DNA from: Nemertoderma westbladi
Lineage: Eukaryota; Animalia; Xenacoelomorpha
Length of the DNA stretch: 64,000 nt
NCBI GenBank assembly: GCA_032718475.1
Contig: JAUCBJ010002739.1
Span: 1 to 64,000, forward strand
Direction of reading: 5' to 3'
Shown here: positions 2-56,030 of the stretch, piece by piece
Position numbering within the stretch: the first letter of the stretch is position 1
Layout of the letters: each line of letters begins with the position of its first letter
The notes under the pieces: generated by a model
What the model was told of the DNA's origin: nothing
The model's input: only the letters and a program-made list of their open reading frames with translations
The model's database searches: none
Translations under genes and position numbers: made by a program

Positions 2-1579
2 AGATGTTTTTCTACGCCTACTTAGATGAGATCTATTTCCTCCGCCTTCAGGATCGGTGGTCTCGCCTTCCTCCGAGGATGTGTATCCCTGGCGCTTGGG
101 AGTAGATTTTCTCATCATCTGCATTTGATTAGCAGTAAACTGTTTATTTATACTGTCTTGTGTCTCTTGCAGATTTTCCAACTCCAGTTGGGTAGTCTGC
201 TCAGAGGCTCTCCGTTCTGCTTCGGCCACTGCCCTTTCCGCCTTTGCTTCTGCCGCCGCTGCCTTTCTTTTTGCTTCTGCTTCTGCCGCTGCTGCCCTTC
301 CTTTTGCTTCTGCTTCTGCCGCTGCTGCCCTTGCTGCTATTCTTTCTGCTTCTACTTCTGCCGCCGCTGCCTTTCTTTCTGCTTCTGCTTCTGCCGTAGC
401 CGCCGCCTTTTGTTCCTCTATCCTTCTTTTCTTTATTTGTTCTTCTCGGACTCTAGTGAGGCGGAGTTTTTCATCACATTCAGCTTGGTTTGCAGCTAAC
501 ATTTCGGCATCGATTGAGTCCAACACAAGCTTGGTTCCTTCACTATTAGGGGAAAGTCCAGACAGCCGTCTCCTCAACTCTTCGTCTCCTAGGAATCGCT
601 GATAGTCGGACAAATAAATGTCGATAGCGTCTCTAGTTCGCGGTTTCTCGGCGGCCTCTTCGCTTTCCGCTTGAGAAAGGGTGACATCAGTTGGTTCTTC
701 ATAGGTTGATCTCTCAGCCAGCTGGGATTTCCACTGGGCCGTTTCCTGGACTTTGAGATCTACCCGATGTAACCAAGTTTTGACAGCAACCTGCAGCGAC
801 GTGTCTTGTCTTCTTTTGGAAGTTTCCTCAAAGGCTGAGAGGATTAGTCGTATGCGTAGGGTTCTTTCGCGTATTTGATATAGCAGCTCTTCCTGCTCTT
901 GAGGTCCGTGAGGTTGTCGAAACAGTTGTTCTTCCAATCGATCCAAGGATCCGAAGAATCCCTGCACATATCCTGCTGCCGACCTCTTCCAAACAGCTGG
1001 ATCCATTGTATCTTTAGCCACTCCCATCCTGTGTATATCTTCCCAAGTAGCCTCGGACATATCCAACGGAAGTCCGAGTCCGGGAAAGTTCCATTGTGAT
1101 TCAACAATAGATATCAATTCTTCTCTGGCGTATCCCGCGTAATTATCTTGGGTCGCTCGCTTATTCTTCGCCCAGTCGGCTTGATGTTCCTCCACCGCAA
1201 TGAATATAGTAGTTAGCACTGCAGCAGGAAGAGTAAGAAGGGGGTCCGAGTAGACTGTATCAGCCATCTGCACTCCATGTTCGGGAGTCAACTCTACAGT
1301 ATCCGAACTGCTGGAGCTATCGGGTCGCTGGGAAGTAGGTTCTTGACCAAGATGTTGCTGCGATAGGACAACTGCCTCTTGGTCCCGTTTTACCTGTGCC
1401 CGAGTGCCTATGATGGACCTATGTTGGACTAGCCTAGGGTCTGATACTACTGGAGGGATGACCTTTTTTACAGTAGGAGGTGAGCCGAACTCCTTTCTTA
1501 TTCGCTCCACACTCCTATCTGAATCACAGATAGTTGTATCGATCAGACTGTCTGACAGGTTTTGCTGAGTGTCAGACAT
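2..1579 (-). CDS. N-terminal part of BEL/Pao Gag(-Pol) polyprotein, open to window edge (absent from ORF track)
   Basis: Manual translation from ATG 1579: MSDTQQNLSDSLIDTTICDSDRS...DPRLVQHRSIIGTRAQVKRDQE...DAIDIYLSDYQRFLGD...RRRKTS; no stop seen in 526 codons. Homologous to ORFs 5055-8657 and 19103-21084. Confidence 0.9.
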   Translation of the reverse strand, partial: MSDTQQNLSDSLIDTTICDSDRSVERIRKEFGSPPTVKKVIPPVVSDPRLVQHRSIIGTRAQVKRDQEAVVLSQQHLGQEPTSQRPDSSSSSDTVELTPEHGVQMADTVYSDPLLTLPAAVLTTIFIAVEEHQADWAKNKRATQDNYAGYAREELISIVESQWNFPGLGLPLDMSEATWEDIHRMGVAKDTMDPAVWKRSAAGYVQGFFGSLDRLEEQLFRQPHGPQEQEELLYQIRERTLRIRLILSAFEETSKRRQDTSLQVAVKTWLHRVDLKVQETAQWKSQLAERSTYEEPTDVTLSQAESEEAAEKPRTRDAIDIYLSDYQRFLGDEELRRRLSGLSPNSEGTKLVLDSIDAEMLAANQAECDEKLRLTRVREEQIKKRRIEEQKAAATAEAEAERKAAAAEVEAERIAARAAAAEAEAKGRAAAAEAEAKRKAAAAEAKAERAVAEAERRASEQTTQLELENLQETQDSINKQFTANQMQMMRKSTPKRQGYTSSEEGETTDPEGGGNRSHLSRRRKTS

Positions 1580-3748
1580 GTTTAGTTATACAGTTGAATG
1601 TCTACTACTATAGTTTCAGTTAAAGCAAGTCTAGTAATTCAGTATGACCGCAAGCCTAGCGATTTATTACCGGTACCGTTACTCAGTGTAACGTGATATA
1701 TATACAATATATTAGAATACCGGTATGCTTATAATATATATATAAGTATTATTACAGACTAGATTTGTCACAGAGTACCGGTATATAATTTTAGCACAAC
1801 TATATATAAATATATAATAGGCCTATCGTGAATACCGGTATGCAGCTTACACTTATAGTATATAAGTATAATTATGAACTAGAATTAATTACAGAGTACC
1901 GGTATGATTTCAGCTCAAATTTATAGAAATAAATATAATAAGCCTATGGTAAGTACCGGTATGTCAATTATTTTTAGAATAATGGAATTCCTGAATATTT
2001 TAGGGTTACTTAGTTACTTTAACTTACTTTATTACCGTTATTTAAGCAGTAGTCCAACTGATAGTGAGACCTAGTTGTTGTATGGCAGGCCTACTATTTA
2101 TAAATCGTTTGATTTGATTTATAATATTTATATACCCGTTTAAATGGGTTTTGTCAAGATTTGAAATAAATGTTATTATTTCTGGGGGAGTCACTACACA
2201 GAAGCTGAACGCCTCTCAGTGAAGTGCTATTTATTTGACACTAAAACTGATAATTCTAATTTACCTAAGTTACTTAATACTACAAATTACTTACGATACG
2301 GGTGAGATTAATTCTCTAATTAAACACAACAAAATATTACGTACAAAATTTTTAGGGTAATTTTACAGGGAACTACAAACCAGCCTAACAAAGGGTTAGA
2401 TTTCTGGTTATTACAACGGACAGGGTACTACGGTATTTGAAATAATAAGTAGTAGTAAATATATTGTACTGTCCAGATAGGAAAATACCACCGCCTGACG
2501 ACCTATAACCGTATCGCTATAGGTACTACGTTATGTATCACGGATTGTTCCTACCCAGAAGCTAATAGAGCTAACGAATGTGCCTATCAACCACTTTACA
2601 ACACAAATATACTGCCTACACTAATTACTTCGGAAAGCACTGTACACTAAACCCTAAATTAGGTACAAGTACCGGTATAACAAATAATCAGTAGTTAAAT
2701 ATACTTGAACAGTTAAAAGAACCACGGCATCTGCTGGAGTGACCGAAGCACAAAATCTCCAGTCTTTACCTACGCCGAGCAGCCCTGATGTAGTACCGGA
2801 GTTAATTTAACTATAACGGTATGTATAACAAGCACAATTACTGTAGGAATAAACTTGGGGACATGAATGTTGCGAATAATCGCATAAACTCTGAATAATA
2901 AATATTACGCTACCCGTACAGAATACTCAAACAAAATACAAACTAAACGCTGGCAGACTACTATCAAGCCTAAACAAACTACAGTATGTGCAGATTCTGA
3001 AACTGTTAGTTAGTATGCGTTCTAGCACGAGTACGACTTATTCTTTAAGAGGGGATTGACCTTACCGCTTATGGCTGCCCCAACTTACTAACGGCACTTT
3101 ATCAGACCAACTCTACACACGCAGCAATCCCTTCAGGCCTAAGAATAGCTAGACAACAATCTAGCCTACAAAATATCTGAGTAATAACTATTACGGTACC
3201 TGAACAGACCACACAAACAAACACAGGCTAAAACACTGGCAGACTACAATCAAGCCTAAATAAACTACAGTATATGCAGATTCTGAAACTGTTAGTTAGT
3301 ATGCGTTCTAACACGGTAGTACGACTTATTCTTTAAGAGGGGATTGACCTTACCGCATATGGCTGCCCCAACTTACTAACGGCACTTGATCAGACAAACT
3401 CTACACACGCCGTAATCTCTCCAAACTCAACACAGTCAGACAGCAGTTCAGCCTACAATTATTTGAACAATCTGAGCAGACTTACACGTCTTCAGCTCAA
3501 TATTAACTTACTAGGAAATAAAACCGACAGAAATAAGTAAGCTCCAAAAGAAACAAGGGGTGTACAGTCCCTAATCTCTTAAACAGCCTACCGGTATACA
3601 ATAATCAAAATCGAATAATACTAAATGTACTTGTACAGCAGTACCGGTACCGGTGATGACAGTTAGGCCTACTGACCTACAGAAGTACCGGTTCAGTTTT
3701 ACCAGTCACTACGGTATTTTGCAACCTTATTGCCTACTGCAATAAGAT

Positions 3749-3761
3749 TATAAACTGTTAC
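3749..3761 (-). promoter_or_regulatory. Primer-binding-site position of copy A (GTAACAGTTTATA), non-tRNA type
   Basis: Directly follows the LTR end CA, lacks TGG, and is the exact reverse complement of element-sense TATAAACTGTTAC at 4510-4498 in the same LTR. Confidence 0.75.
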
Positions 3762-4954
3762 TGTTCGCGCTTTTGAAGACCTTTAGCAGTTTAACCTGCC
3801 AAAATTTATATGTCTTTTAGTTAATTAAAACACCTTTAGCATACGACAATATTTTATGCTAATACGCAAAACATTAGCCGAAGTCAGCCCATGCGCGATC
3901 ATTCACCCGATGGATCTACACCCGGGAGGCTGAATTCGGATGCTTAAATTTTATTATTGCAGTGTAAGGTTGCAGTGTAAACCTACTGTATTATTCGATA
4001 GATCGTTAATAATTAATTTCTGACAGATATTATTGGCTTTCGGGAAATATTAACAGTTCCTTTAGGACGTGGCGCTCTATCTATTTAAACAGAACTAAGA
4101 CTTATACTAAAACGCAACGATACCGCTTATGATTAAAGTATAAAGCGTATTCTTTAGGAAATACTTTGTTACCAATCACAATCATGCACACTATTCTGCC
4201 GACCGTCAGTATATTTGATCACACATAAAGAGAGTAGCAATTGACTCATGTAGGGTCTGCTAAATAACATTAGATTCAATACACACCACATTAATATAAA
4301 TCGCAATTGTTATGTATAGCCTGTCTCTCTAACCTGTAGTGTATCAAGAAAATTGGGAAATTTGGGTGATTTATCCGTATTATCCAAAGAGCAATATTTC
4401 CATTAATAACTGACGGTAAATAACAGTACAAACAATATGATTAATAGTGAGTTAAGATTGATTAGTTAAGTTAAGATTCGGTTGGTTCGTTAGTTAGGTA
4501 ACAGTTTATACTTTCGATAATTTAAGCAGTTTTACTAGAGTTCTTCCCAAAAAGCCGGTGTTATGGCGAAAATGGGAACACAACAACAGAATCATATAAA
4601 ATCATATGACTACTACCACTATACGAGTATACCAAAAACTCTTATTCCCCGAAGCTCCCGTCCAACACAGAGGATGAGCAGTGAGATAGGAAATTCAGTT
4701 CAGTAGCGCTGGGATAGGTCGAAATCAACGCCCACTCAAATTCTATTGGCCGATACGGACAGCAAGGCTAAGGCAACCTCTCTAAGCTAGTTGGCCGATT
4801 AAACTGAGCCCAGATATCTCCGTACAGCACATCAGCCAATAAGCTGGTAGCTTGCACTATTTTAGTTATAAATCCCTTTGAGAGTATTCTAGCGACCGGG
4901 GGGGAACTGGCCAGCAAAGGCAAACGTATCAGTTATCCCACAAAAGCTTTTACA
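3762..4954 (-). repeat. 5' LTR of copy A (1193 bp)
   Basis: TG...CA termini match the TSD-bounded solo LTR at 54934-56030. CCAAT-like motifs in the 5' part. Confidence 0.9.
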
Positions 4955-5054
4955 GGTCCGTCGCTCCCTGCAGGAGAGGTGAGAGTCCCTGCGAGACGTC
5001 TGATGTTCCAGAGCTCCAATCGCTCTCTCTGATCTTCATGAAGGATCCACTCCT

Positions 5055-8000
5055 TCATGGTCCTTTAGGGATGTTAAGTTGTTGGGCATGATCATCTTCG
5101 TCCCAATTATAAGGTTCCACTTGGGTGGTAGCGAAGTTCTTTATTGCCACCATTTTTACTGACCTTATACTGTATTCTCCTAGTTTATCCTGTGGAGTGG
5201 ACAACTCACCTATATAATAGTCGGCAGCTACAGTTGAATTCCAAACCTGCATGATCCCTGACATGTTTAGCTTGGTTCGGAACTTGGGTTGTCCAGCAAA
5301 GATGACTTCGGCTAGTTCTTTATCGATGAATGTTCCTGTGCTACCGGAGTCCAGGAGGGCGTTCACTATATAGCTCTTCTGAGGTCCGTGGACCCGTAAC
5401 TGGACTACAGGAAATTCTCGGATTCCTATATTGGAAGTTGGCGCTTTCCAAGATGGTTGTTGATCGGAAGTAGTTAAGGTAAGGTCGCTGTCTGTGTCTT
5501 TCTCATGCACGAGTGCTCGATACACTGCGGTGGTGTTTATTAGGTAACAGGTTTCGTTTTGGTCGGAGAATTCGTCCGTATAGAATCCTTCCATTTCAGA
5601 ACTTTGGTCGGAGAATTCGTCCGTATAGAATCCTTCCATCTCAGAACTTTGGTCAGTGTCGTTCACATCACTGAATTGGACATGTAGTTCGGACTCACTT
5701 ACCTGACTCGAGCTGTTTCGTTCGAATTCCGTGTGCAACAAGATATGATGTTTTGCGCCGCACTTTGCACACCTTGCGTCGGAGTAACAGGTTCGCCGTT
5801 GGTGTCCTCGTCTGAGGCAATTATAACACAACCGCTTATCCCACATGACTTCACGTCTATCCTTTAGTGATTTCCTCAGGAATTTATCACACGCATTTAA
5901 ACGGTGGGGCCCGTCGCACAGCACACATTTCGGCTTGATGTTACTTACTTTAACCTGTGCTATGTGGTGCACACTTGTTCTTTCCTCGGGCTTTCTCACC
6001 TGAATTCTTTTAGGAGACGTAGGAAGGGTTTTATGTACCGGTTCCCTTCTGTCATTGGGTCGAGACTCGGATTTACTTACCTGATCTTTAGGCATTTTAT
6101 TGACATAATAAGATCTGTCAGTGTCTTTCCCGCTGTCCTCTCCTTGAGAAGTTTGGCTTTCACCGTCGTCGGTATAACATACTGGTGTTACCCTTCTCCT
6201 AGAAACGGGTTTCTCACTTACCTTGTTTTCCAATGTCTTCTCTCTGGACTGCCTTAGGAGCTGTAATTTCACTTCTCTATCTAAGAATGACATGAGATCA
6301 GTCATGGTAGGGTCTCGTCGTTGTTGTTCCATCATATATAACACCTTCTTATCCCAGCGTGTACCTACTCCACCCTTGGGCAAAGTAGATGCTAAGGCTC
6401 CTACAACCATAGAATTCTGGTATTCATGAGACTTACCTAACCAATCTAGTTGTCTACAGATCTCCTGAATCTCATCGGAAAACTCTATAATCCCGCTGCT
6501 AAGAAACTTTCGGGGCGCCATTAATTTCGCATATAAATACCTAGCTATGTTAGTCCTATTACCATACCTGATGTTTAGTGTATCCCAAACTTGTCTTAAT
6601 CCATCTGGATGTCCAATAAATTTTAACGCCATTGACTTGGGAGGTCCTTCCAAACATTCGATGAGGAATCTAAGTTTCTCTCCGTTAGATAGTACAGAGT
6701 TCTGTATGTTATCTTTGTAATATTCATTAAAAGGTAACCATTTCATCTCATCTCCATTGAACTTGACGATCTCTCCAACCTTTACCGCTTGTCGGGCTTC
6801 GGTTCTAGCCATTTGGCGTGTAAAACTTTCTTGAGCCATCGCATTATTGAATAGAGAATTATCGGTATATAAGTTTCTCGGATTATTATCAAGTCTAGAT
6901 GAGATATCATTATCAACAGGTTTATAATTACCCTTAATAGGGTTCACTATAGGAGTTTCTATTTCGCTAGCAGTATAGATGCGTGTAGGCTCCACACCTT
7001 GAGCATGGGATACTTCAGACCTAACGGGTTGACACATTGTTACAGGGGGTGGTGGTATACCCTTTTGTAAATTGACTAATTTATCGCGTTCTAGCGCGAT
7101 ACTTTGCTGCACTTCTTGCAACTCTAGCCTACTTTCCCTTACTGTGCCCTTGAATTGCTGGACAGTCTCCTGCATCTGCCCGAGCAGGAGATCCATCCCC
7201 CGCCGTCTCTCATCCACCCATTCGACCGCCGAAGCGGGAGTCGCCAACGTTGTAGCGGGCGGACGAGGGACAATGGGCGACAAATTATGAATATTTCGCT
7301 CGGGGTCCAGGACATGAACTGTCTCCTGGGCAGTTCTACGGGGCACAGGTAGCTTAGTGCTATGCAGAGGGAATTTAGAGGTAATCTCAGGGAGCACAGG
7401 TGTGTCTATCACCGAAGGGGTGATTTCAAGAACAGGCCTAATTATTTCAGGCTCATCTACTATCGTAGGGAGTCTTTCTATTTTAATTGTTTGGTCTGTG
7501 GGCTCTGTACTACCTAAGTTGGTGTTATTTAGTTGCCTTCTAACAGCTGGAGGCAAATCAGGCAATTTCTGACGGTGGAATGTTCTTTTACGTCTGCTTA
7601 GACGAGATCTATTTCCTTTGCCTTCAGTATCGGTGGTATCGCCTTCCTCAGATGATGTATATCCATGTCGTTTGGGAGTAGATCGATTCATCATCTGCAT
7701 ATTACTAGCTGTTAACTGTTTATTTATGCAGTCTTGATTCTCCTGAATGTTTTCCAATTCTAATTGGGTGGTTTCTTCAGTCGCTCTCCGTTCGGCTTCT
7801 GCCACTGCCTCTGCGGCCTTTCTCTCAGCCTCGGCCGCCTTTGCTTCTGCCGCTGCCGCTGCCGCTGCCGCTGCCGCTTTTGCTTCTGCCGCTGCCGCTT
7901 TTGCCTCTGCCGCTGCCGCTGCCGCTTTTGCCTCTGCCGCTGCCGCTTTTCTTTCTGCTTCTGCAGCTACCACTGCTGCTTTCTTTCTGTCTTCTATACG

Positions 8001-8657
8001 TTTTTTCTTTACTTGTTCTTCTTGGGCTCGTGTGATGCGGAGTTGTTCATCAAATTTAGCCTGATTCGCAGCCCTCATTTCCACATCGATGGCATCCAAC
8101 ACAAGCTTGGTTCCTTCACTATTAGGGCTAAGTCCCTCTAACCTTCTCCTCAACTCGTCATCACCTAAAAAACGTTGATAGTCTGACAGATAGATGTCAA
8201 TGGCATCCCTCTTATGCGGTTTCTCTGCTGTCACTTCGCTTTCTTCTTGAGAAGAAGTGGCGTCGGTTGATTCTTCATAGGTTGGCCGCTCATCATAAAC
8301 CTTATCCGCCATCTTCGCTCCGCGTTCGGGCGTCCGCTCAACAGTATCCGAACTACTGGAGCTATCGGGCCGTTGAGAAGTAAGTTCTTGGCTCGCGGGT
8401 TGTTGAGGTTCCGCTGCTTCTTGGTCCCGCTTGACCTGAGCTCGAGTGCCTATGATAGACCTACGATGTTGGACTAGCCTAGGGTCTGAGATTACTACAG
8501 TAGGGATGGCCTTTCTTACAGCAGGAGGTGACTTCGACTTGGATCTAGGATGTTCTATACTTTGATCTTGGTCACAGATCTTTTTAAGGCACTGTCTAAC
8601 AGTCATTCTAACACTATCTAGGAGACTATCTGACAGTGTTTGTTGTGAGTCAGACAT
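5055..8657 (-). CDS. BEL/Pao Gag-aspartic protease, 1200 aa, no RT/RNase H/integrase
   Basis: Capsid-like region (KFNGDEMKWLPF...EKLRFLIECLEG), three BEL-type Cys/His knuckles (CVLCDGPH, CYNCLRRGHQRRTC, CAKCGAKHH), protease motif ALLDSGS. Confidence 0.92.
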   Translation of the reverse strand: MSDSQQTLSDSLLDSVRMTVRQCLKKICDQDQSIEHPRSKSKSPPAVRKAIPTVVISDPRLVQHRRSIIGTRAQVKRDQEAAEPQQPASQELTSQRPDSSSSSDTVERTPERGAKMADKVYDERPTYEESTDATSSQEESEVTAEKPHKRDAIDIYLSDYQRFLGDDELRRRLEGLSPNSEGTKLVLDAIDVEMRAANQAKFDEQLRITRAQEEQVKKKRIEDRKKAAVVAAEAERKAAAAEAKAAAAAAEAKAAAAEAKAAAAAAAAAAEAKAAEAERKAAEAVAEAERRATEETTQLELENIQENQDCINKQLTASNMQMMNRSTPKRHGYTSSEEGDTTDTEGKGNRSRLSRRKRTFHRQKLPDLPPAVRRQLNNTNLGSTEPTDQTIKIERLPTIVDEPEIIRPVLEITPSVIDTPVLPEITSKFPLHSTKLPVPRRTAQETVHVLDPERNIHNLSPIVPRPPATTLATPASAVEWVDERRRGMDLLLGQMQETVQQFKGTVRESRLELQEVQQSIALERDKLVNLQKGIPPPPVTMCQPVRSEVSHAQGVEPTRIYTASEIETPIVNPIKGNYKPVDNDISSRLDNNPRNLYTDNSLFNNAMAQESFTRQMARTEARQAVKVGEIVKFNGDEMKWLPFNEYYKDNIQNSVLSNGEKLRFLIECLEGPPKSMALKFIGHPDGLRQVWDTLNIRYGNRTNIARYLYAKLMAPRKFLSSGIIEFSDEIQEICRQLDWLGKSHEYQNSMVVGALASTLPKGGVGTRWDKKVLYMMEQQRRDPTMTDLMSFLDREVKLQLLRQSREKTLENKVSEKPVSRRRVTPVCYTDDGESQTSQGEDSGKDTDRSYYVNKMPKDQVSKSESRPNDRREPVHKTLPTSPKRIQVRKPEERTSVHHIAQVKVSNIKPKCVLCDGPHRLNACDKFLRKSLKDRREVMWDKRLCYNCLRRGHQRRTCYSDARCAKCGAKHHILLHTEFERNSSSQVSESELHVQFSDVNDTDQSSEMEGFYTDEFSDQSSEMEGFYTDEFSDQNETCYLINTTAVYRALVHEKDTDSDLTLTTSDQQPSWKAPTSNIGIREFPVVQLRVHGPQKSYIVNALLDSGSTGTFIDKELAEVIFAGQPKFRTKLNMSGIMQVWNSTVAADYYIGELSTPQDKLGEYSIRSVKMVAIKNFATTQVEPYNWDEDDHAQQLNIPKGP

Positions 8658-10922
8658 GTTTGATTGTACATTTGAATGCCTACTGCTATATTACAGCTAA
8701 AGCAAGTCTAGTAATTCAGTATCACTGTTAGCCTAGTAATTAATTACCGATACTGCTACTCAATGTAGCGTGATATATATAATATATTAGAATACCGGTA
8801 TGCTTATAGTATATATAACTATATAAGTATTATTACAGACTAGGTTTATCACAGAATACCGGTATAATTTTAGCACAAATATATATAAATATATAATAGG
8901 CCTATCGGGAATACCGGTATACAGCTTACAGTTTTAGTGTATATATATAAGTATAATTATTAACTAAAATTAATTACAGAATACCGGTATGATTTCAACC
9001 TAAAATTTATAGAAATAAATATAATAAGCCTATTGTAAATACCGGTATGTCAATTATTTTAGAATAATTGAATTTCTGAATTTTAAGGGTTACTTGGTTA
9101 CTTTACTTACTTTATTACCGTTATTTGAGCAGTAGTCCAACTGATATTGAGACCTAATTGTTATATGGCAGGCCTACTATTTATAAATCGTTTGAGTTGA
9201 TTTATAATATATATATATACCCGTTTAATGGGTTTTGTCAATGTTGAAATAAATGTTATTATTTCTGGGGAGTAATCACTACACAAAGCGGTGCGCTTTC
9301 AGTGAAGTGTTACTTATAGGACACTAAAACAAATAATTCTAATTTACCTAAGTTACTTAATACTACAAATTACGTACGATTCGGGTTGAGATTACAATCT
9401 CTAAATAAACACAAAAATTTTACAAAAACACAAAATACGAATTTTCAGGGTAATTTTACAAGAAGTCTACAAACCAGTCTAACAAAGGGTTAGAAATCTG
9501 GTTATTACAACGGACAGGGTACTGCGGTATTTGAAAATAATAAGTAGTAGTAAAATACACTGCGTTGTCCAGATAGGAAAATACCACCGCCTGACGACCT
9601 ATAGCCGTATCGCTATAGGTACTACGTTATGTATCACGGAGTGTCCCTACCTAGAAGTTAATAGAGCTAATCGAACGTGCCTATCAACCAGTTTACAACA
9701 CAAATATAATGCCTACACTAATTACTTTCGGAAAGCACTGTACACTAAACCCTAAATTAGGTACGAGTACTTGTACAACATATAATCAGTAGTTAAATAT
9801 ACTTGAACAGCTAAAAGAACCACGGCATCTGCTGGAGTGACCGATGCACAAAATCACCAGTCTTTACCTACGCCAAGCAGCCCGTGTAGTACCGGGGTTA
9901 ATTTAACTATAGCGGTATGTATAACAAACACAATTACTGTAGGAACAAACTTGGGGAATGAATGTTGCGAATAATCGCATAAACTCTGAATAATAAATAT
10001 TACGCTACGCGTACAAACCACTCAAACAAAATGCAGACCAAATACTGACAGACTACTATCAAGCCTAAATAAACTACAGGACATGCAGACTCCGAAATGA
10101 TTAGGTAGTATGCGTTCTAACCCAGTAGTACGACTTATTCTTTAGTTGGGGGTTTACCTTACAGCATTCGCTGCCCCTACTTCCTAACCGTTCTTTATCG
10201 GACAAGTGATCTACACACGCTGCAATCCGTTCAGACCTAATAACAGCCAGACAACTATCCAGCCTACAAATTATCTAAATAAATATTATACGCTACCTGT
10301 ACAGACTTGCACAAACAAAGTACAGACTAAACGATGGCAGACTACTCTCAAGCCTAAATAAACTACAGGACATGCAGACTCCGAAATGATTAGGTAGTAT
10401 GCGTTCTAACCCAGTAGTACGACTTATTCTTTAGTTGGGGGTTTACCTTACAGTATTTGCTGCCCCTACTTCCTAACCGTTCTTTATCGGACAGGTGATC
10501 TACACACACTGCAATCCGTTCAGACCTAACAGCAATCAGACAACAGCTCAGCCTACAAATTGTCTGTACAATCTGATCAGGCTTACACGCCTTCTGTTCA
10601 ATACTGGCCTACAAACAAATAAAACCGACAGAAACAAGTAAAATCTCAATAAAAAACCAGGGCGGCCGTTCCCTGATTAAGTACTAAGACCTACCGGTAT
10701 ATAACTATCAAATTCGAATAATACTAATGTACTTATACTGGAAGTACCGGTTAGGACAGTTGGGCCTACGGACCTACAGAAGTACCGGTTCTGGCAGTTG
10801 GACCTACGGACCTACAGCAGTACCGGTTCTGGCAGTTGGGCCTACTGACCTACAGAAGTACCGGTTCAGGTTTACCGGTCAACCGGTACTTTCAACTTTA
10901 TTGCTTACTGCAATAAAGAAGC

Positions 10923-10934
10923 TATATCCGTTAT
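10923..10934 (-). promoter_or_regulatory. Primer-binding-site position of copy B (ATAACGGATATA), non-tRNA type
   Basis: Directly after the LTR end CA; exact reverse complement of element-sense TATATCCGTTAT at 11675-11664 in the same LTR. Confidence 0.75.
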
Positions 10935-12158
10935 TGTTCGCGCTTTCAGACCTTTGGCAGTTTAACCCGCCAAATTAGGATGTCTTCTAGATAATAAATC
11001 GCTTTAGCCTCTAACAAGTATTTGATTCACTACACTAGTTGAAACCAATCTGTGCGCGATCATTCACCCGTTGGATATACCCGGGAGATTGATTTCGACA
11101 GCTTAATCGTATTGCTATGTAAGCCTAATGTATTATTCGACTGACAGTATTATATAATCTCTGACAATATTATTCACCTTCGGGGAATATTAACAGTTCC
11201 TTTAGGACGTGGCGCTCTATTTATACAAACAGAGTTATGACTTAAACTACTCACAACGATATGGCTTAGTTACAATTCACATATATGGCGCATTCTTTAG
11301 GAAATGCTTCGTTATCAGTCTCACTCATACACAATGCTGCACAATACTGCACACTAATCTGCCGATCTTCACTGATTTTAGTCACATATAAAAGGAACAC
11401 GGACCGAATCATGTAGGGTCTATCAAATAACATTAGATTCACTTCAAACCACTTTAACATAAGTCACAATTGTTATATGTAACCCTTCTCTCTTACCTTC
11501 GGTATATCAAGAATATTGGGTTTCGGGGTTATTTATCGTTATTCCAAATATAATAATTCATCAACCATATTATGAAGAACTGACAGTAAATAGCAGTATA
11601 ACAATATAAAGTATGCACAGGTTGTTTGATTAGGTATGGTATGTTATGTTGTGATAAATGCAGATAACGGATATATGTCCTTATAATTAAGCCTACTAGT
11701 GTAGGGCTAAAGCCGTTCTTCCTGGCTTAGAATCACCAACAACACTAAAAACTGATAAGAATAACTATAAGAATACCAGCTACCCTTATTCTACAAAGAT
11801 CTCACCCACCACAGAGAATGAGCATACAGATAGGAAATTCAGTTCAGTAGATCTGTGATAGGTCAAAATCAAAACCAACTCAAATCCTATTGGCAGATAC
11901 AGTAGGCAGGGCTATGGGGCAACGTGGCAATATCAGCCGTTAGCCGTCGTCATGGTAGCGACACTGTTTTCAAGAGTATCGAGCTTTTACGTCACGAAAT
12001 TGCAGATTGTGTCCTCTAAAGTACAAATACAGAAGAAATGGCTTTTATGTCCTCCAAAACACCAGTACAGCAAGGACACGGCCCTTTTATGCCTGGTAAA
12101 CCAACCACAGAGTACTTTACGGGGATAATAACCGGCTAATTACGCAAAAGCTTTTACA
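10935..12158 (-). repeat. LTR (1224 bp): 5' LTR of B, also in the position of the 3' LTR of C
   Basis: Same termini as the other LTRs. On the element strand it is preceded by a purine-rich tract and followed by the B leader. Confidence 0.9.
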
Positions 12159-12170
12159 GCCTACCCCTCA
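12159..12170 (-). promoter_or_regulatory. Probable polypurine tract of copy C
   Basis: Element-sense TGAGGGGTAGGC directly before TGTAAAAGC. Confidence 0.55.
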
Positions 12171-13840
12171 CGGCCTCCGGACAGTGCAAGATCCTCAGCG
12201 CCGATATACTGTTGTCGCGGTGTTTATCACCAATGTAGTAGCTACACAACGACAACAATAACCAGCGCGAGTCACTCCACTGTCCGTCCTAAGGGCTTAG
12301 ATTGACTTCAGGTTCTCACTTTAGAGTTAGGGCTACTTTCACAACTGCGACTAGCTACTGTAAACACACTTTAGTAGCAACATTCACCTATAAACGCACA
12401 AACTCCACACAACTGTCACAAATTGTACACATTCGGGCCATTTGTCCGTTAGTCAAGTGCCTTCCAGAATGCCACGTTATTATTATGTATCCTTGGATAC
12501 TAGCAGTGCGCTATTTATTCCGTATGCTATTCAATGGGGCAAGCTTTCTATTGCTCTTTTAACTCGCTTCTAATTCTAGCGTGGTTGTTGCTATGGTGAC
12601 ATTATGGAAAGCTAGCAGTAGAATTAGGATAATTCTCATGCATACAGATCTGGGATGCTATTTAATAGTAATTCTTTAATTGTCAATATTCCCCTTTATA
12701 CATGACTTTATGAATTTTATCGGCTATTGACTATATATTGGAGATTCTCGCACACTAATACACTTAATAGGGAGAATCTCCGCTCCCATGATCTATTAAT
12801 TAATGGAATTTTGGGAATGTTATAAATTGTATAAAATAACAATTTATAAAATTCATGAAAGGATATGAATTTAAATTTATTCCCGTAAATTTTATTATTT
12901 AATATTAAAATAGACACAATTTTATTCCAGAATATGTCTGGGGACTGAGATCCTTGATTCTAGTAAATTTGTCCTTTTAAGAGTATCGGTAAGTGCTACG
13001 ATATCTTAATCGACTAGAATTTTTAAAGGATCTAAATTTTAACAGATCTTGATTTATAGATTTTCTCGGTTTACAAACTACTTAGAGTTTATTTGCGTGC
13101 ATTTACTCTATTATAACATTTGTTTTAATAGATTTTTATAAATATTAACTATGTAATATTTAAGATGGGCACCGATTTATTCCAGAACATGTCTGGGGAC
13201 GTTAACCACTGATTCTAGAATTTTGTCTTTCAAATATATCGGTGGGTGCCGCGGTATCTTAATCGACTAGAATTACAGATGGTCAAAGGGTTTAACAGAT
13301 TTATTTGCGTTGTACGCTACTGTTAAAGGGACATCACGCTACTATATGTATTATTTAATATATAATATAATTAATATAATAGAGCAATATTGCAAGAAGC
13401 AATGTCAGAGAGAAGAGGCAAGTCGTTTCCAAGGTCTACCCAGAGCTTGGTTTAGCCGAGACACGAGGATCTGAACTTTGCATTCCTAATACTCTACTTA
13501 CCAATAATACTTGAGTATATAGTAGGAGCTTTATTGTACTTTAATAAGTACGGACATTTCATCTTACTGTAGTCACGTATTTATAATATGATACGGACAG
13601 TAAGGAAAGAGAAAGAAGAATTATTTCTCGCCATTGCACTAAATATATAATATAAGTAATTAAGTAATAAACACGAGTATATATTGCACTAATCTACTAA
13701 ATAATCGCTAAAATAACATTCTACTAAATAAAATTAAAGAAAACGATTATTATAAAATTACATAATAATACATACCTAAATATAAAAATAATAAAAAACG
13801 AATATAAAATAATATGGTCACACACCCACTCCAGACGCTG

Positions 13841-16800
13841 TTACGTTGGGGAGTCCCTAGATGTCAGTTGGATTAGGGAGGTGGTCGCGGGAAGAGTATC
13901 TTGCCTTCCATAGTTTCCGGACAGTTCTCTGTCTCTCTCCAGTAAACATAAACGACCAACTGGGCGATTGAGCTGCTGCGTCTCGAATACAATTCCCGGT
14001 TTCTTAAAGTTACGTCGCATGACGACGAGTTCTACCGATCGCACTAAACCGTCATCCAAGATATGAGTCTCGATAATATGACCTGTCTGCCACCGCTTAC
14101 ATGGAAGATCTGTTTCCACAATAAGGACCATGTCTCCGGCGCTGACGTTTTCTTGCTGCGCAAACCACTTGGTTCGAAGTTGTAGCGTAGGCAGATAATG
14201 TTTTTCGAAATGGTCAGCGAAACGACGGGATAATAACTGCATAAGTTGCCAAGTTTGCCGGCAGTATTCGTCTCCGTCCGTGATTTCCGATCGTGGGAGC
14301 ATGGCTACAGGTTTCTTCAGTAGGAAGTGCGCGGGTGTTAGCGCTTCCAGGGAGTCGGGACTCGATGAGACTGGCATAAGCGGTCTTTCGTTAAGATAGG
14401 CGGCGATTTCTTCCATTAACGTACGCAAACGTTCGTCGGTGAGATACGCACGGCACGGCACTATCAGAAACCTCCATCAGAAACCTATCTGAGATTTTAT
14501 ATTTGGGAAGATCTTTAATAGCATGGACCTGCACAGATGTCGGTGGAGCGGTATCACTAGTGATCTTCGTCCTGGAGTAGTGATAATGGAAGCATCGCTT
14601 CAAATACGCAACGGCCTTACAAAGCCTGATTCCAGGAGCTATAGTGATGTATCGCCCTCTGTAGGAGAGGTGAGAGTCCCTGCGAAACGTCTGGTGTTCC
14701 AGATTTCCAGTCTCTCTCTCTGATTTCCACAACGGACTTATTTGTGGCGGGGAAGTTTAGATCCACAGCGTCGTCTCCGGAAAGATGTAGTACAGACAGA
14801 TCTATCACGGGTTTAAATAACTTCGATTTACTCGTCCGGGTTTTAGGTTTGACTTTCTCCGCTCCCTTGGCTTGTCTAATCTCAGCCGTGGTAAGATGAG
14901 GAGGCCATTCATCTTCTTCTTTACTTAGGAAGTCGGGTCCACCTAACCAGTCCGGAGTGTCTACCAGTTCTTGAGGAGTTGCTCCTCTGGAGGCGATGTC
15001 GGCTGGATTAATCGTCCCAGGGCAATGTCTCCATTGATCTACACTAGTGCGACTAAGTATAACGGCTACTCTGTTGGTAACAAAGACGCTGAACTGACAG
15101 ACTTCATTGGTTATATACTCCAAAACGAGTAAAGCATCAGTCCAATAGACAGTTTTCTCCAGTGGATAGTCGATCTGTTCTGTGACATTCCGGCCGATGG
15201 CTGTAGCGTATAGAGCCGCTTTTAACTCCGCTCGAGGAACTCGTAGCTTGTTGTTTATCAAGGCCTTAGAGGTAACCAAGGCAACTTTAATTCCATCCGG
15301 AGTTTCAACCCTCAGGTAGGCTACTATACCTATTCCCATATCGCTGGCGTCTCCAAACACATGGAGTTGATAGGAATACGTGGGGAGAACATGACCAAAA
15401 TATGAACGGGAAATCGTAAAGTTCTCGATGGATGGTAGAGAATCTTCCCATTTCATCCACTTCTTTAGTAGTTCTCCCTTAAGTGGATCGTCCCACGAGT
15501 GGTTTTCAAGCCACATTTGTTGAACTAAACTCCGAGCAACCAATATAACTGGGCTAATAAATCCCAATGGATCGAAATAAGTGCTCAGGATACTTAGACA
15601 AATCCGTTTAGTTCGAACTGGATTATCTCGCTGTTTTAGCTGGAAAAACAGGATATCTCTCTCCGTGTCCCATTTCAAACCAAGCGTCTTGGTTTCTGGA
15701 AGATCGTCCTTGATTAGGTCCAGGTCTTTAACTCCTCGGTCTTCTACCGGGATCGATTCCAGAAACTCACGGGAGTTGCTGGTGAATTTAGTTAGTCGAA
15801 ATCCACCACGTTTCAAACACTCTACCATTCCCTTGGCAACATCAATGGCTTCTTCCACCGATGGGAGGGACTTTAAATTATCGTCCATGTATATATCCCG
15901 TTTGATGTTGTCGATAACCGCTTTAGAGAAGGCGTCTCGGTTGTCATCAGCAGTGGTGCGCACTACTGAACAGGCGTTCGAGGGGCTCGAGATGATTCCG
16001 AAAGCCTGGATGGTCATCCAGTACTCCACAGGTTTTTGGCTGAGGTCTCCTTCAGGCCACCACAGAAATCGCAGGCTGTCTCGATCCCTATCCAGCGCCT
16101 TAACTTGTAAGAACATGCCTTCTATATCTGAGGCGAAGGCGATCGAATATTGCCGTAATCTTAAGAGTATTCCCAACAAGGATTGGAGTAAGTTGGGTCC
16201 CGGCAACAACTCCGAATTAAGGGATTGGCCCATGTAGAGGGCGGAGCCGTCAAATACTACCCGAACTTCGTTGGGTTTACCGGGTTTGGGAACGTAATGA
16301 TGGGTTAAATAATACGTTCTCTCAGTTATGGGTGTTTCTTCCGGTACTCGCTCCGCATATCCCTTATCGATGAATTTCTTCAGCTGTGTCTTGTACATCT
16401 CTTTAGCTGAAGCGTTTGCCGTAAGACGTCGATGTAGTTGAGCGATTCTTTTCTCAGCCAAGGGTCGGTTATTTATAAAATTAGGTTCTCGCTTTCGAAA
16501 TGGCAGACCAATTTCATACCTCCCTTGATCCCTAAGGAAACGTGTAGTCGTTGCCTGGATCTGCTTGGCTCTTTCCTCCTCGACTGATAGTGCTTTGTCG
16601 TAGGAATTAGGTTCTACAGCTTCTTGAGTAAAGAATCGTACGGCGTGTTCGTCGCGAATCTTAGCATTATGTCGATCTATCACCTCATTTAGCTCATCGT
16701 CATAATTGAGTTGTCCGCCATGATGGACGAGATGGCAAAGGTGCACTTGGTTTCTCCAAGCTTCACTTTCAGTGAGGAGGTCTATCGTATTTTCCTCGTC

Positions 16801-19800
16801 AAATAGCTGGGTAATATCGTCGTTATCTGAGGAGTATGGTGTTCCCTCAGGTGTGATTTCTCCCTCACTGATTTCTTCTTCCCATTCACTCACCTGGTGC
16901 ACTTGTTCAGGGGGTAATCTTTCCATGAGCGTTCTACGGGAAGGTCCAGTGAAGTACCAACCTACTCTAGTTCTTCCCGCATAAGTTTGCAATGGTTGCG
17001 GTCGAGCAGGTCGTTTCTCTAATGTCTCAAGCGCCTCATGCGCATTTTGGCCGATTAAAATTTGCACCCCTGGGTAGTCGGTGTTGAATCTAGGGATATT
17101 ATGTTGCTGGGTAAAATCGTCTTCATCCCAGTTGTAAGGTTCTACTTGGCTGGTAGCAAAGTTCTTTATCGCCACCATTTTTACTGACCTTATACTGTGT
17201 TCTCCTAGTTCGTCTTGGGGAGTGGACAACGCACCTACATAGTAGTCTGTAGCTACGGTAGATTTCCAAACCTGCATAATTCCTGAAAGGTTCAACTTAG
17301 TTCGGAACTTGGGTTGTCCTGCAAAGATGTCTTCGGCTAGTTCTTTATCGATGAACGTTCCTGTGCTGCCGGAGTCCAGGAGTGCGTTGACTATAAAACT
17401 CTTACTCAACCCATGGACTCTTAGCTGAACTACGGGGAATTCCCGGATTCCGACGTTGGAAGTTGGTGCTTTCCAAGATGGTTGTCGGTCAGGAATAGCC
17501 GGGTGCGCTTCGTTATCGGTTTCAGTCTCATACGTAAGCGCTCGATACACCGCGGTGTTTATTAGATAACAGGATTCGTTTTCGTCGGAGAATTCATCCG
17601 CGTAGAATCCTTCCATCTCAGAACTTTGGTCAGTGTCGTTCACATCACTGAATTGGACATGTAGTTCGGACTCACTTACCTGACTCGGGCTGTTTCTTTC
17701 AAATTCGGTGTGCAACAAGATATGATGTTTCGCGCCGCACTTAGCACACCTCGCTTCGGAGTAACAGGTTCGCCGTTGGTGTCCTTGTCTGAGACAATTA
17801 TAACACAACCGCTTATCCCACATGACATCACGTCTATCTTTTAGGGATTTCTTTAAGAATTCATCACACACACTTAAACGGTGGGGCCCGTCGCACAATG
17901 CACATTTTGGTTTGATGTTACTTACTTTACCTCGGGTAACGTTGTGCACACTCGTTCTTTCCTCGGGCTTTCTTCCATGAATTCTCTTAGGAGACGTAGG
18001 AGGAGTTTTTGTTACCTGTTCTCTCCTGTCACTAGTTCGAGACTTAAATTTACTTACGTCCTTAGGTGCTTTGTTGACATAGTAAGATCTTTCGGTGTCT
18101 TTCCCGTTGCTCTCCTCTTGAGAGGTCTGGCTTTCGCCTTCGTCTGTATAACACACTGGTGTTACCTTTCTCCTAGAAACGGGTTTTTCACTTACCTTAT
18201 TTTCCGGTGTCTTCTCTCGGGACTGCTTTAGGAGCTGTAATTTTACCTCTCCATCTAAGAATGACATGAGATCAGCCATGGTAGGGTCTCTTCGTTGTTG
18301 TTCCATCATATATAGAACTCTTTTGTCCCAACGAGTACCTACTCCACCCTTTGGCAAGGTAGATGCTACAGCTCCAATAATCATAGAACTCTGATACTCA
18401 TGAGACTTACCTAGCCAATCTAATTGTCTACAAATCTCCTGGATCTCATCGGAAAACTCTATAATCCCGCTGCTAAGAAACTTTCGTGGCGCTACCAATT
18501 TCGCATACAAATACCTAGCTATGTTATTCCTATTGCCATACCTGATGTTTAGTGTATCCCAAACTTGTCTTAATCCATCTGGATGTCCAATAAACTTTAA
18601 CGCCATTAACTTGGGAGATCCTTCCAAGCACTCGATGAGGAATCTAAGTTTCTCTCCGTTAGATAGCACAGAGTTATGTATGTTATCTTTATAATATTCA
18701 TTAAAAGGTAACCATTTCATCTCATCTCCGTTGAACTTGACGATCTCTCCCACCTTTACCGCTTAACGGGCTTCGGTTCTAGCCATTTGACGCGTAAAAC
18801 TTTCTTGGGCCATCGTATTATTCAATATTGAGTTATCGGTATATAAATTTCTCAGATTATGATCAGGTCTATATGGAATATCATTATCAGCAGGTCCATC
18901 ATTACCCTGAATAGGGTTTACTATAGGAGTTTCTACTTCACTAGCAGTATAGATGCGTGTAGGTTCCACACCTTGCGCATGAAATACTTCAGACCTAACA
19001 GGTTGACACATTGTTACAGGGGGTGGTGTTATACCCCTTTGTATATTTACTAATTTATCGCGTTCTAACGCGATACTCTGCTGCACTTCTTGCAGTTCTA
19101 ACCTACCCTCTCTTACTGTTCCCTTTAACTGCTGCACAGTCCCTTCCATTTCTCGGACGTGCTGGGAGGAACGGATGCGCTGTTCCTCCAATTGTCCGAG
19201 CCTTCCATTGATCCATCCCCCGTCGTCCCTCATCCACCCACTCGACCACCGAAGCGGGAGCCGCCAACATAGTAGTGGGTAGACGAGGGACGATGGGCGA
19301 TAAATCGTGGATGTCTCGCTCGGCGTCCAAGACTGGGACTGTTTCTTCAGCTAGTTTATTGGGCACAGGTAATTTAGTACTGTGCAAAGGGAATTTTGAG
19401 GTAGGTTCTGGGAGTACAGGTGTCTCTATCACCGAAGGGTTGGCTTCGAGAACAGGCCTAATTATTTCAGGCTCATCTACTATAGTAGGGAGTCTTTCTA
19501 CTCTAATAATTTGGTCTGTGGGTTCTGTACTACCTAAGTCTGTGCTAGCTAGTTGCCTTCTCACAGCTGGGGGCAAATTAGGCAATTTCTGATGGTGAGG
19601 CGTTCTCCTACGTCTGCTGGAACGAGATCTATTTCCTCCGCCTTCAGGATCTGTTGTATCGCCTTCATCAGATGATGTAAATCCCCGTCTCTTGGGAATA
19701 GATCGCCTTATCATCTGCCACTGACTAGCTGTTCTCTGTTTATCTATGTAGTCTTGCTTCTCTTTAAGATTTTCCAACTCTAGTTGAGTTGTCTCTTCAG

Positions 19801-21084
19801 ACGCCCTCCGTTCTGCTTCTACCACTGCCTCTGCCGCTTTTCTTTCCGCTTCTGCCGCTGCTACTGCTGCTTTTCTTTCAACTTCTGCCGCTGCCGCTGC
19901 TGCTGTCTTTCTGTCTTCTATTCGTTTTTTCTTTAACTGTTCTTCTTGGACCCTAGCGATGCGGCTGCTTTCATCAAATTTAGCTTGGTTTGCGGCTAAC
20001 ATTTCCGCATCTAATGAGTCCAACACAAACTTGGCTCCTTCACTAGTAGGGCGAAGTCCAGCTAGCCGTATCCTCAACTCTTTGTCACCTATAAATCGTT
20101 GATAGTCCGACAGATAGATGTCAATAGCGTCCTTCTTCTGAGGTTTCTCCAATGTCGCTTCGCTTTCCACTTGAGAAAAGGTAGCGTCTGTTGATTCTCT
20201 GTGGGTTGAGCGCTCAGTTAGCTGAATTTTCCATTGGGATGTTCCTTGGACTTTAAGACTCCCCGTTGGAACCAATTCTTTACGGCAACTTGCAATGACG
20301 TGTCTTGACTTTTCTTCGAGGCTTCCTCAAAGGCCGAAAGGATTAGTCTAATTCTTAGGATTCGTTCTCGAACTTGATATAGCAGCTCTCCCTGCTCTTG
20401 AGGTCCTTGGGGTTGTTGAAACAGTTGTTCCTCTAATCGCTCCAAAGAGCTGAAGAATCCCTGTACATATCCGGCTGCCAACCTCTTCCACACAGCTGGA
20501 TCTCTAGTGTCCTTTACCACTCCCATCCTGTATAAGTCCTCCCAGGCAGCTTCCGATAAGTTAAACGGGAGTCCGGGTCCGGGGAAGATCCATTGCGTCT
20601 CGACAATAGATTTCAGTTCCTCTTTCGTGTATCCTGCATAACTGTCCTTGGTCAATCGCTTACTTCTCGCCCAATCAATTTGATGTTCGTCCACCGCAAT
20701 CAATACTCTAGTGAGTACGGCTTCAGGAAGAATGAGAAGTGGATCCGAATAAACTGCATCTGCCATCTTTGCTCCGCGCTCGGGTGGCAACTCTACAGTA
20801 TCTGAACTACTGGAGCTATCGGGCCGCTGAGAAATAAGTTCTCGGCTCGGGTGTTGCTGCTGTTTAACAGCTGCCTCTTGGTCCCGCTTGACTTGAGCCC
20901 GAGTGCCTATGATAGACCTACGGTGCTTTACTAGTCTAGGGTCTGATACTACTACTGAAGGGATGACTTTTCTTACAGTAGGAGGGGACTTGAACATTGG
21001 TCTCAAACGTTCGGCACTCCTATCGGAGTCGCAGACTGTTGTTTCTAAGAGACTATCTGACAGAGTTTGCTTTTTGTCAGCCAT
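13841..21084 (-). pseudogene. Disrupted BEL/Pao gag-pol of copy C
   Basis: ORF pieces 20218-21084, 19103-20275, 18763-19233, 14617-18753, 14391-14732, 13841-14461. Frameshifts near 20260 and 19205; CAA>TAA at 18763-18765. Motifs LDSGS, RVVFDGS, YMDD, FGDAS, NPADIASRG and integrase C-terminus (LNERPL, LTPAHFL). HHCC finger and DDE core not found (deleted). Confidence 0.92.
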
Positions 21085-22899: not shown

Positions 22900-23757
22900 C
22901 ACTGCTGCATACAACTGCACACTGCTGCACACGGATCTGCCGACCGTCACTGAATTTAATCATATATAAGGAGGATAGCAACTGACACATGTAGGGCTTA
23001 TGAAATAGCATTGACACACACTAAAACCACTGTAATGTAAGTCGCAATTGCTACCAGTAACCGGTCTCTCTAACCTTTGTTAATCAAGAAGATTGGGGTT
23101 TTATGATTATTTATCGATATTCTCCAAATATAACACATATCCATCAACAGTTAACAATTAATAACCGACAGTAAATAGCAGTAAAATAATGCGGTGAAAT
23201 TGGTGCAGACAGTTTGTTTGTGACCAATTTGTTGTAGTTTGTTCAGTTTGCAGTTTCATCAGTTGGTAGGTGCAGGTAATAGATTTACGTTTTTATAATC
23301 AAAGCCGTCTAATGTTGGCCAAAGTCTGAAACTTCCAACACAGAAGTACAGAATCATTTCTAAGCAGTTGTTCTCGCTCAGAAAGGTAAACAAAGACCGT
23401 CATGCATTGCGCGATTTCCCGTAGGCTTCTGTGCAAAATAAAATGAAAATCGCTCTGATTGGTCGAGTGAGCCGAACAAAGAAAGTTAAGAAAGCTCCAC
23501 ATCGACATCAAATCAGCTGACAGATTTCGTCATCTGAACTACACTGTATTAAGAGTATTTGGCGTATTGCGGCATAAAATGGCTTGTTATGTCCTTTAAA
23601 ACACCTACAGAGTACATTGCGGAGAAAATGGCTTGTTATGTCCGCTAAAACACCTACAGAGTACATTGCGGAGAAAATGGCTTGTTATGTCCGCTAAAAC
23701 AACTAAACAGTTCATTGCGGAGAAAAATGACTGGTTATATCCGCAAAAGCTTTTACA
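22900..23757 (-). repeat. 5' LTR of copy C; 3' end and PBS deleted; ~50-bp tandem repeats near its 5' end (~23570-23745)
   Basis: Closest to the solo LTR at 54934. Sequence equivalent to A ~3625-4185 is missing at ~22870-22900 (boundary approximate). Confidence 0.8.
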
Positions 23758-35785: not shown

Positions 35786-36021
35786 GTTTATCTATTTAAT
35801 TATTATAAGCAATACCGGTAGTTGTAATTAGAGTATAATAAAATATTATATTAAAAATATCGCTAAAAAATCACCAGTTATTTTGGTATTTATAACCAAT
35901 TTTTTGGTATCTATTGTGACATCCTCTTAAACAATAAACTACTTTACGTCGTAAAACTTGAAATTGAATAAAAATCGACATTAACAATTATTATACAATT
36001 CCACCTATTCGTATTGTTTAG

Positions 36022-54933: not shown

Positions 54934-56030
54934 TGTAAAAGCTTTTGCGGACATAACAAGTCATTTTTCCCCGCAATGCGCAGTGTAGGTGCTTTTGCGG
55001 ACATAACAATGCATTTTTGCCGCAATGCGCATAATACTCTAAAAGATTGGAGCTCAGATGACGAAATCTGTCAGCTGGTTTCCTGTAAACGTGGAACTTT
55101 TCTTTGTTCTGCCTAGTCAGCCAATCAGAGCGATTTTCACTTTATTTCTGACAGAGGCCTATGGAAAACCGCGCAATGCATTACGGTCTTTGTTTACCTT
55201 TCTGAGCCTCAGAACCGGCTTGGAAATCTTCTGTACTTCTGTTGTGGAAGTTTCAGACTTTGGCCTAAACATCTGATGGCTTTGATTACAAGAACGTAAA
55301 ACTATTAACACACACATTGAACATTGCTGCACATGGAACACTACATAAGTAACACATACTGACTGTTCACCGCATTATTAACTTCTGTTATTAATTGTTG
55401 GTATATTGATGTATATTGCTGATATGTTTGGAGAATACCGATGAATAAATCATAAAACCCCCAATCTTCTTGATTACTGAAGGTGTGAGGAACAGGTTTA
55501 CCGGTAGCAACTGCGACTTACATTATAGTGGTTTTTTGTGTGAATTAAATGCTATTTCATAATCCCTACATGTGTCAGTTGCGATCCTCCTTATATATGA
55601 TCAAATTCAGTGACGGACGGCAGATCAGTGCGAAGTAGTGTGAAGGTTAATAAAGCATCTCCTAAAGAATGCGCTTTTTACGAAACTTTTTGGCCATCTA
55701 GTTGTGATTAGTATAAGTCATAACTCTGTTTTTATACTTAAAGCGCCACGTCCTAAAGGAACTGTTAATATTTCCCCGAAAGTAAATATATTGTCAGAGA
55801 TTATATATTAACGATCAATCGAATAATACAGTAGGTCTACACTGCAATCACTATCAAAGCATCCGAATCCAGTCTCCCATAAATCTGGGGGTGAATGGTC
55901 GCGCACAGACTGGCTTCGGCTGATGTAATTTCAGTACACTAAATAATTGATATAGGCTAAAGTCGATTTATAAACAAAGGGACAACTAAAATTGGCAGGT
56001 TAAACTGCTAAAGGTCTAAAAGCGCGAACA
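54934..56030 (+). mobile_element. Solo LTR (1097 bp) of the A/B/C BEL family, TSD TACTC
   Basis: TACTC|TGTAAAAGCTTTTG...AAAAGCGCGAACA|TACTC; homologous along its length to LTR C and to the 3' halves of LTRs A and B. Confidence 0.95.

Follow-up and report, generated by a model that had tools for sequence, protein, structure and literature searches.

A family of BEL/Pao retrotransposons from Nemertoderma westbladi probably starts reverse transcription with RNA derived from its own long terminal repeat (LTR), in the manner of Tf1, rather than with a tRNA; we put the probability of this reading at about 0.8. The family lies in a 64,000-nt stretch of DNA (contig JAUCBJ010002739.1 of assembly GCA_032718475.1, positions 1 to 64,000, forward strand), hereafter the window, in which two copies, A and B, carry a primer binding site (PBS) complementary to their own LTR. 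An initial annotation had proposed self-priming from these two copies, and at the level of sequence 22 related loci and their tree agree with the proposal. The annotation had taken the trait to be that of a single family; the putative primer signature is instead clade-wide, and most scored members need a predicted splice junction to form it.

Both LTR ends were fixed by a solo LTR and its 5-bp target duplication, which the annotation had used for the 3' end. The LTRs, PBSs and candidate primer motifs are:

3762..4954 (4954->3762), minus strand: LTR A, 5' LTR of element A; 1193 bp, with TG...CA ends common to the solo LTR.
3749..3761 (3761-3749), minus strand: PBS A; 13 nt, beginning directly after the LTR (offset 0), TGG absent.
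4498..4510 (4510-4498), minus strand: motif A, a self-primer candidate of 13 nt; lies 736 nt upstream from the end of the LTR and is exactly reverse-complementary to PBS A.
10935..12158 (12158->10935), minus strand: LTR B; 1224 bp, serving both the upstream element (as its 3' LTR) and element B (as its 5' LTR).
10923..10934 (10934-10923), minus strand: PBS B; 12 nt, beginning directly after the LTR (offset 0), TGG absent.
11664..11675 (11675-11664), minus strand: motif B, a self-primer candidate of 12 nt; lies 729 nt upstream from the end of the LTR and is exactly reverse-complementary to PBS B.
54934..56030, plus strand: solo LTR; 1097 bp, with TACTC on either side; the motif's homologue at 55296-55309 differs in sequence.
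22915..23757, minus strand: LTR C; lacks its 3' part and the PBS through deletion; the motif's homologue at 23288-23276 differs in sequence.

No TGG follows LTR A or LTR B, and pairing of each PBS with its motif ends on both sides of the 13 or 12 nt, halting exactly at the LTR boundary. The two motifs occupy the same columns of the LTR alignment and are thus homologous. They differ by three substitutions and one indel, which are mirrored in the PBSs, so that each PBS pairs perfectly with its own partner; when the copies are swapped, pairing from the LTR end with the LTR of the other copy extends over just 5 nt for either PBS. The initial annotation was right on the missing TGG, the exact complements at the LTR boundary and the differences mirrored between the copies. 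Predicted duplex energies are -13.9 and -13.3 kcal/mol for the own pairs and -5.0 and -2.7 kcal/mol for the swapped pairs. The motif is no better conserved between A and B (9/13) than the rest of R-U5 (69.5%), and the LTR end and the 100 nt past the PBS are 83% alike, which argues that pairing, not sequence, is kept. Both window copies fall within a published rule for self-priming, which asks for at least 10 bp of complementarity at a distance of 0-5 bp from the LTR end (PMC6317226, in excerpt).

The empirical background exceeds the annotation's naive chance estimate of 2e-5 because it includes real repeats: when every third window position was sampled on both strands, matches of at least 13 nt occurred at 0.12% and of at least 12 nt at 0.17% of positions. 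The match nevertheless occurs twice, at homologous sites and exactly at the boundary. Among Markov-resampled LTRs, 0/300 held an equally long match for copy A, and likewise for copy B. Chance, or a one-off DNA template switch that placed a copy of the motif at the LTR end, is extremely unlikely. The sequence is AT-rich and the background frequencies count in favour of coincidence, but the two diverged copies carry mirrored changes and the signature recurs throughout a clade of relatives, among them cases of junction-spanning matches that a DNA template switch cannot yield; the pairing test in these relatives has already largely refuted this explanation.

A splice junction that would lengthen motif A to 16 nt was rejected: it has weak sites, is lost under a stricter filter and is absent in B. 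A TATA-box reading of motif A was set aside, since the hexamer is not kept in B or the solo LTR. The LTR-end pattern gave 0 matches in metagenome contigs.

Relatives were drawn from 138 BEL/Pao pol loci, 39 and 79 from scans and 20 from further regions that were fetched. Twenty-two were scored, with the 5' LTR end set by hand and same-family duplicates dropped; the remainder lacked a usable LTR pair, and the 20 further regions contributed TGG-type elements only or had no LTR pair. Ten loci carry TGG no more than 7 nt from the LTR end, six of them with the same PBS start, and own-LTR pairing exceeds 6 nt in none of the ten. By contrast, nine of the 12 non-TGG loci (7/10 families) pair with their own LTR over at least 11 nt, the matches being 11-12 nt long. 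L002 and L098 contain a contiguous 11-nt match; in L001, L003, L013, L054, L094, L101 and L040 a match of 11-12 nt forms solely across a predicted GT-AG junction in the own LTR, with consensus-like sites. The longest match among 546 cross pairs is 9 nt, and when LTRs were resampled with any GT and AG permitted, 0 or 1 of 40 equalled the junction scores of seven junction-positive loci (L066 included, L040 left out). Among the predicted introns are LTR positions 198-274 in L040, 259-381 in L094 and 323-471 in L101. Between L001 and L003 the exon-1 letters at the junction differ, and the PBSs change along with them. Pairing begins 0-4 nt from the LTR end and is purely Watson-Crick in all 11 positive cases.

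Because the PBS of these relatives matches a predicted spliced junction that is absent from the DNA, the simplest explanation is that the element's own RNA serves as primer and is copied into the PBS, as primers normally are during replication (PMC7175516, in excerpt). Copying in each round would account for the joint changes of PBS and motif, with no need for selection on every one of them. A tRNA half or another host small RNA as the primer, with the LTR motif as a by-product, is very unlikely. Half-tRNA priming without TGG is known in Copia lineages (PMC6317226, in excerpt), but a host RNA would not follow the element's splice junction, and the PBSs here are AT-rich, vary between families and between A and B, and fit their own LTR only. 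One tRNA-like PBS is common to the TGG relatives across families, whereas non-TGG PBSs are dissimilar between families. No tRNA gene or Rfam family was detected in the window.

Several further observations concern the relatives. In L004:5615-6169 the PBS fits a strong predicted splice junction at 10/11 positions by eye, with the mismatch identical in both LTRs. The LTR terminus is TA, not CA, in L094:7978-8518 and L098:566-911. The 39 loci L001-L039 come from prokaryote genome records, nearly all of them metagenome-assembled genomes; several are complete with identical LTRs, and they are probably animal host DNA binned with microbes. Scans of viral contigs yielded no confirmed relative, and a single-protein repeat scan of genome contigs found none.

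The tree (IQ-TREE, 23 rows) comprised element C of the window, 11 non-TGG loci, 10 TGG loci and the window Gypsy element as outgroup; L013 was omitted because of its short match. All 12 non-TGG rows, element C included, form one clade (support 100/100, stem 0.8), which is sister to four TGG rows (97/97), with the other six TGG rows outside. FastTree on 118 rows recovers the same TGG/non-TGG split. The Gypsy outgroup branch is very long, and the root of the tree is unsure. We lean towards a scenario in which a widespread animal BEL/Pao clade dropped tRNA priming once and self-primes, with mostly spliceosome-joined LTR exons as the primer and the contiguous forms as intron-less versions. Speculatively, contiguous forms may arise by copying of a spliced 3' LTR.

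The window family belongs to BEL/Pao by its proteins: DUF1759, Peptidase_A17 and DUF5641 score above cut-off, and its triple Cys-His box, LLDSG protease, YMDD RT and DAS RNase H motifs fit those described, among them LLDxG and Y[VM]DD (PMC554778, in excerpt). Element C has the BEL/Pao layout, protease, reverse transcriptase (RT) and RNase H, then integrase, followed by a purine tract and LTR B, with the integrase broken. Membership rests on these proteins; the 18-nt tRNA-complementary PBS that also characterizes BEL/Pao is missing: the first bases after LTR A or B contain no TGG. The best protein matches are in cnidarians, echinoderms, molluscs and nemerteans, with no named reference element among them. 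The marine invertebrate range of the clade fits the Sailor lineage (Sinbad/Sparrow/Surcouf; PMC6238403, PMC8556966, both in excerpt), without proving membership.

Self-priming would proceed in a few steps. Transcription would start at the motif or upstream of it, and the motif would pair with the PBS across a distance of ~730 nt, with a predicted hairpin on either side to hold the PBS open. The motif would then be cut at its 3' end, which frees a 3' OH; the enzyme would probably be the element's RNase H, a step borrowed from Tf1, where the RNase H cleavage falls between bases 11 and 12 (PMC7175516, PMC4600332, both in excerpt). RT would extend the primer into a strong-stop DNA of ~730 nt, and plus-strand synthesis would copy the attached primer into a new PBS. 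The predicted hairpins are:

3782..3803, minus strand: predicted U5 hairpin; retained in the solo LTR as well as in A and B, 20 nt before the LTR end.
3727..3745, minus strand: predicted hairpin just downstream of PBS A; z -3.75 (91-nt stretch), 5' arm resembling a 3' splice site.
10896..10918, minus strand: predicted hairpin just downstream of PBS B; z -2.46, with 3/200 shuffles folding equally well.

In both A and B the PBS is thus flanked by a predicted U5 hairpin and a predicted downstream hairpin. Among the eight predicted pairs of the U5 hairpin, two show one-sided changes, none shows two-sided changes and one is broken in one copy. In folds of 800-900 nt the motif-PBS helix of B has a probability of ~1.0 at all five starts tried; as the RNA start moves upstream of the motif by 0, 10, 30, 50 and 90 nt, that of A has a probability of 0.7, 0.19, 0.07, 0 and 0. 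Folding of A favours an RNA start at the motif, and B is indifferent.

An LTR-derived primer could also act in trans, as a short transcript that both begins and terminates in an LTR or as a small RNA made by a host nuclease, instead of being cut by RNase H from the 5' end of the RNA that it primes. We regard this as unlikely. Such a primer would account equally well for the complement, the covariation and the splice-junction match; it needs no closure of a 730-nt loop; the helix of A is weak with upstream starts; and the family is highly repeated (6643 contigs in run X1). However, the strict matching of each PBS to its own copy suggests that the primer travels with its own genome, and Tf1 is a precedent for priming in cis (PMC7175516, in excerpt).

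The leaders between the PBS and the first gag Met are ~2.2 kb long (1580-3748 and 8658-10922, minus strand) and contain tandem duplications of 289 bp, 121 bp and 38 bp. Donor-like AG/GT sites lie at 4333 and 11496 (minus strand), at the same place in all four window LTRs including the solo LTR and LTR C, and acceptor-like sites lie near 3737 and 10908 (minus strand), just past PBS A and PBS B. Together they form a possible ~600-nt intron, the excision of which would remove U5 and the PBS from the translated mRNA. The conserved donor-like sites and the acceptor-like site past each PBS suggest regulated processing of this long leader, and would suit a structural RNA switch that masks the PBS and serves packaging, dimer formation or translational control, while something else primes. 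A switch is quite unlikely, as it leaves unexplained the start of pairing at 0-4 nt in 11/11 positives, the pure Watson-Crick pairing and the absence of TGG throughout the clade.

A number of observations weigh against Tf1-like self-priming by this family or by its clade. The helix of copy A has a probability of at most 0.19 once the RNA starts at least 10 nt upstream of the motif, and 0 at 50 nt. The four window LTRs lack a TATA box at -30, and CCAAT boxes are found 174-239 nt upstream from the motif, positions that may place the transcription start well upstream of it. At ~730 nt the predicted strong-stop DNA is long, against 99 and 148 nt in the contiguous relatives. PBS-bearing copies in the window number two, both from defective or cut-off elements, and element C, the PBS of which is deleted, stands in for A and B in the tree. 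There the window family forms the deepest branch of the non-TGG clade, and a long one (1.15; best identity 44%). Three of the 12 non-TGG loci pair over less than 11 nt: L066 over 10 nt (under a lenient splice rule only), L004 over 8 nt and L079 over 4 nt. The manual placement of LTR ends applies to all scored relatives, and the stricter splice filter was written after the first junction results and admits the unusual donor of L001. Finally, an exploratory scan of nine loci with unknown LTR ends gave junction matches in two and a contiguous match in one.

The interval 3749-11675, which the initial annotation treated as one retrotransposon, is a nest of elements and spans A and B. Its parts and those of the neighbouring element C are:

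12159..12177, minus strand: purine-rich tract, resembling a polypurine tract, before LTR B; similar to tracts preceding the 3' LTRs of relatives.
2..1585, minus strand: start of the gag open reading frame (ORF) of element A; first Met at 1579, running off the window.
5055..8690, minus strand: gag-protease ORF of element B, with DUF1759, a triple Cys-His box and LLDSG; deletion has removed the RT and the greater part of RNase H.
14617..18762, minus strand: gag-pol ORF of element C; DUF1759, LLDSG protease, RT with YMDD, Peptidase_A17 (RNase H region, DAS); stop before integrase.
13841..14476, minus strand: C-terminal integrase piece of element C; DUF5641; integrase split over several frames.

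LTR A has no purine tract upstream, and its flank is homologous to the RNase H region at 14652-14724; LTR A is inserted in the deleted pol, an RNase H remnant, of element B. Since the 3' end of pol and the purine-rich tract precede LTR B, this LTR doubles as the 3' LTR of the upstream element and the 5' LTR of B. The four related LTRs share their first 14 bases, and three share their last 9 bases. They are only 50-66% alike upstream of the motif and 57-68% alike in the next 300 nt, and thus represent distinct subfamilies. Elements A and B are about 82% identical in nucleotides to element C in shared parts. Element C (12158-23757, minus strand) has 5' and 3' LTRs from different subfamilies and shares its 3' LTR with element B, an arrangement that is probably a chimeric tandem arising from recombination. 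A 31-bp tandem array of ~63 copies (23752-25644) adjoins the start of LTR C. In four public runs with the same organism label the solo-LTR family is highly repeated and variable, the 6643 contigs mentioned above having been aligned from run X1. The run contigs aligned to the solo LTR are short pieces; among the matches listed, none joins motif to PBS, and loose ends carry no PBS variant.

Elsewhere in the window, a Gypsy-type element (27825-32956, plus strand) has LTRs of ~300 bp that are 93% alike, a 1294-aa pol and no TGG directly after its 5' LTR. A coatomer gamma gene (35039-38756, plus strand) contains three long open frames of 260, 303 and 351 aa, which suggests that it has few introns; among the matches listed, its protein scores 72-79% against several phyla, one match at 59% excepted, which fits an animal and probably an invertebrate host. 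Arrays of 44-bp tandem repeats at 39816-41241 and 43261-43548 (99% and 96% matches) flank a 556-aa RVT_1 ORF (41245-42915, minus strand), and a second RVT_1 fragment lies at 49101-49844 (minus strand).

If correct, self-priming in BEL/Pao would be the third origin of this strategy among LTR elements, after Tf1/sushi and Copia TAR, and would stand alone in its link to splicing. A clade that self-primes would alter the description of Belpaoviridae and account for the failure of PBS searches in such elements, which would probably also lie beyond the reach of silencing by tRNA fragments aimed at the PBS. In its splice-junction form, the signature would link host RNA processing with primer supply. 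It predicts a junction read, an RNA 5' end and an RNA of 12-13 nt on strong-stop DNA.

Full-text searches of the literature listed no paper on BEL/Pao self-priming, consistent with the initial annotation, which knew of none; Repbase, GyDB and subscription papers lay outside the search and may hold a prior remark. The Caenorhabditis elegans BEL element Cer7 reportedly encodes a tRNA-like primer of its own; the literature search did not confirm this, and it would represent a different mechanism. In the available parts of three BEL/Pao surveys and the Sinbad paper the term 'PBS' is absent. The ICTV profile describes Belpaoviridae as tRNA-primed and calls their replication poorly understood (PMC8742986).

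With the tRNA-primed Belpaoviridae (Semotivirus) the window family shares the triple Cys-His gag, DSG protease, YMDD RT, DAS RNase H, integrase after RNase H, TG...CA LTRs of ~1.2 kb and the 5-bp target duplication. Unlike it, Semotivirus elements carry an 18-nt PBS for tRNA-Arg or tRNA-Gly (PMC8742986), and the 10 TGG-type loci fall outside the non-TGG clade. Self-priming extends beyond Tf1/sushi, the only group that the annotation had named; it has also been predicted, likewise from sequence complementarity alone, for the Copia TAR lineage (Houba, Osr-1; PMC6317226, in excerpt). Those elements are plant Ty1/copia with an unrelated pol order, and the excerpt mentions no splice junction. The closest parallel is Tf1/Tf2 of Schizosaccharomyces pombe, Tj1 and Tf1/sushi-Tcn1 (Ty3/gypsy), in which, according to partial sources, the PBS complements the element's own LTR-derived RNA over ~11 nt rather than a tRNA; the window copies have own-LTR complements of 13 and 12 nt at offset 0. 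The hairpin predicted at the end of U5 in the window LTRs has a counterpart in a U5-IR-like stem of Tf1, known from a reference title alone. The family lies outside Tf1/sushi itself, its pol being BEL/Pao and not Ty3/gypsy (chromovirus-related). It also differs from Tf1 in that the motif is ~730 nt from the PBS and is here a candidate RNA 5' end only, and, unlike Tf1 as described in the available excerpts, many of its BEL/Pao relatives yield the complement only once a predicted intron is removed.

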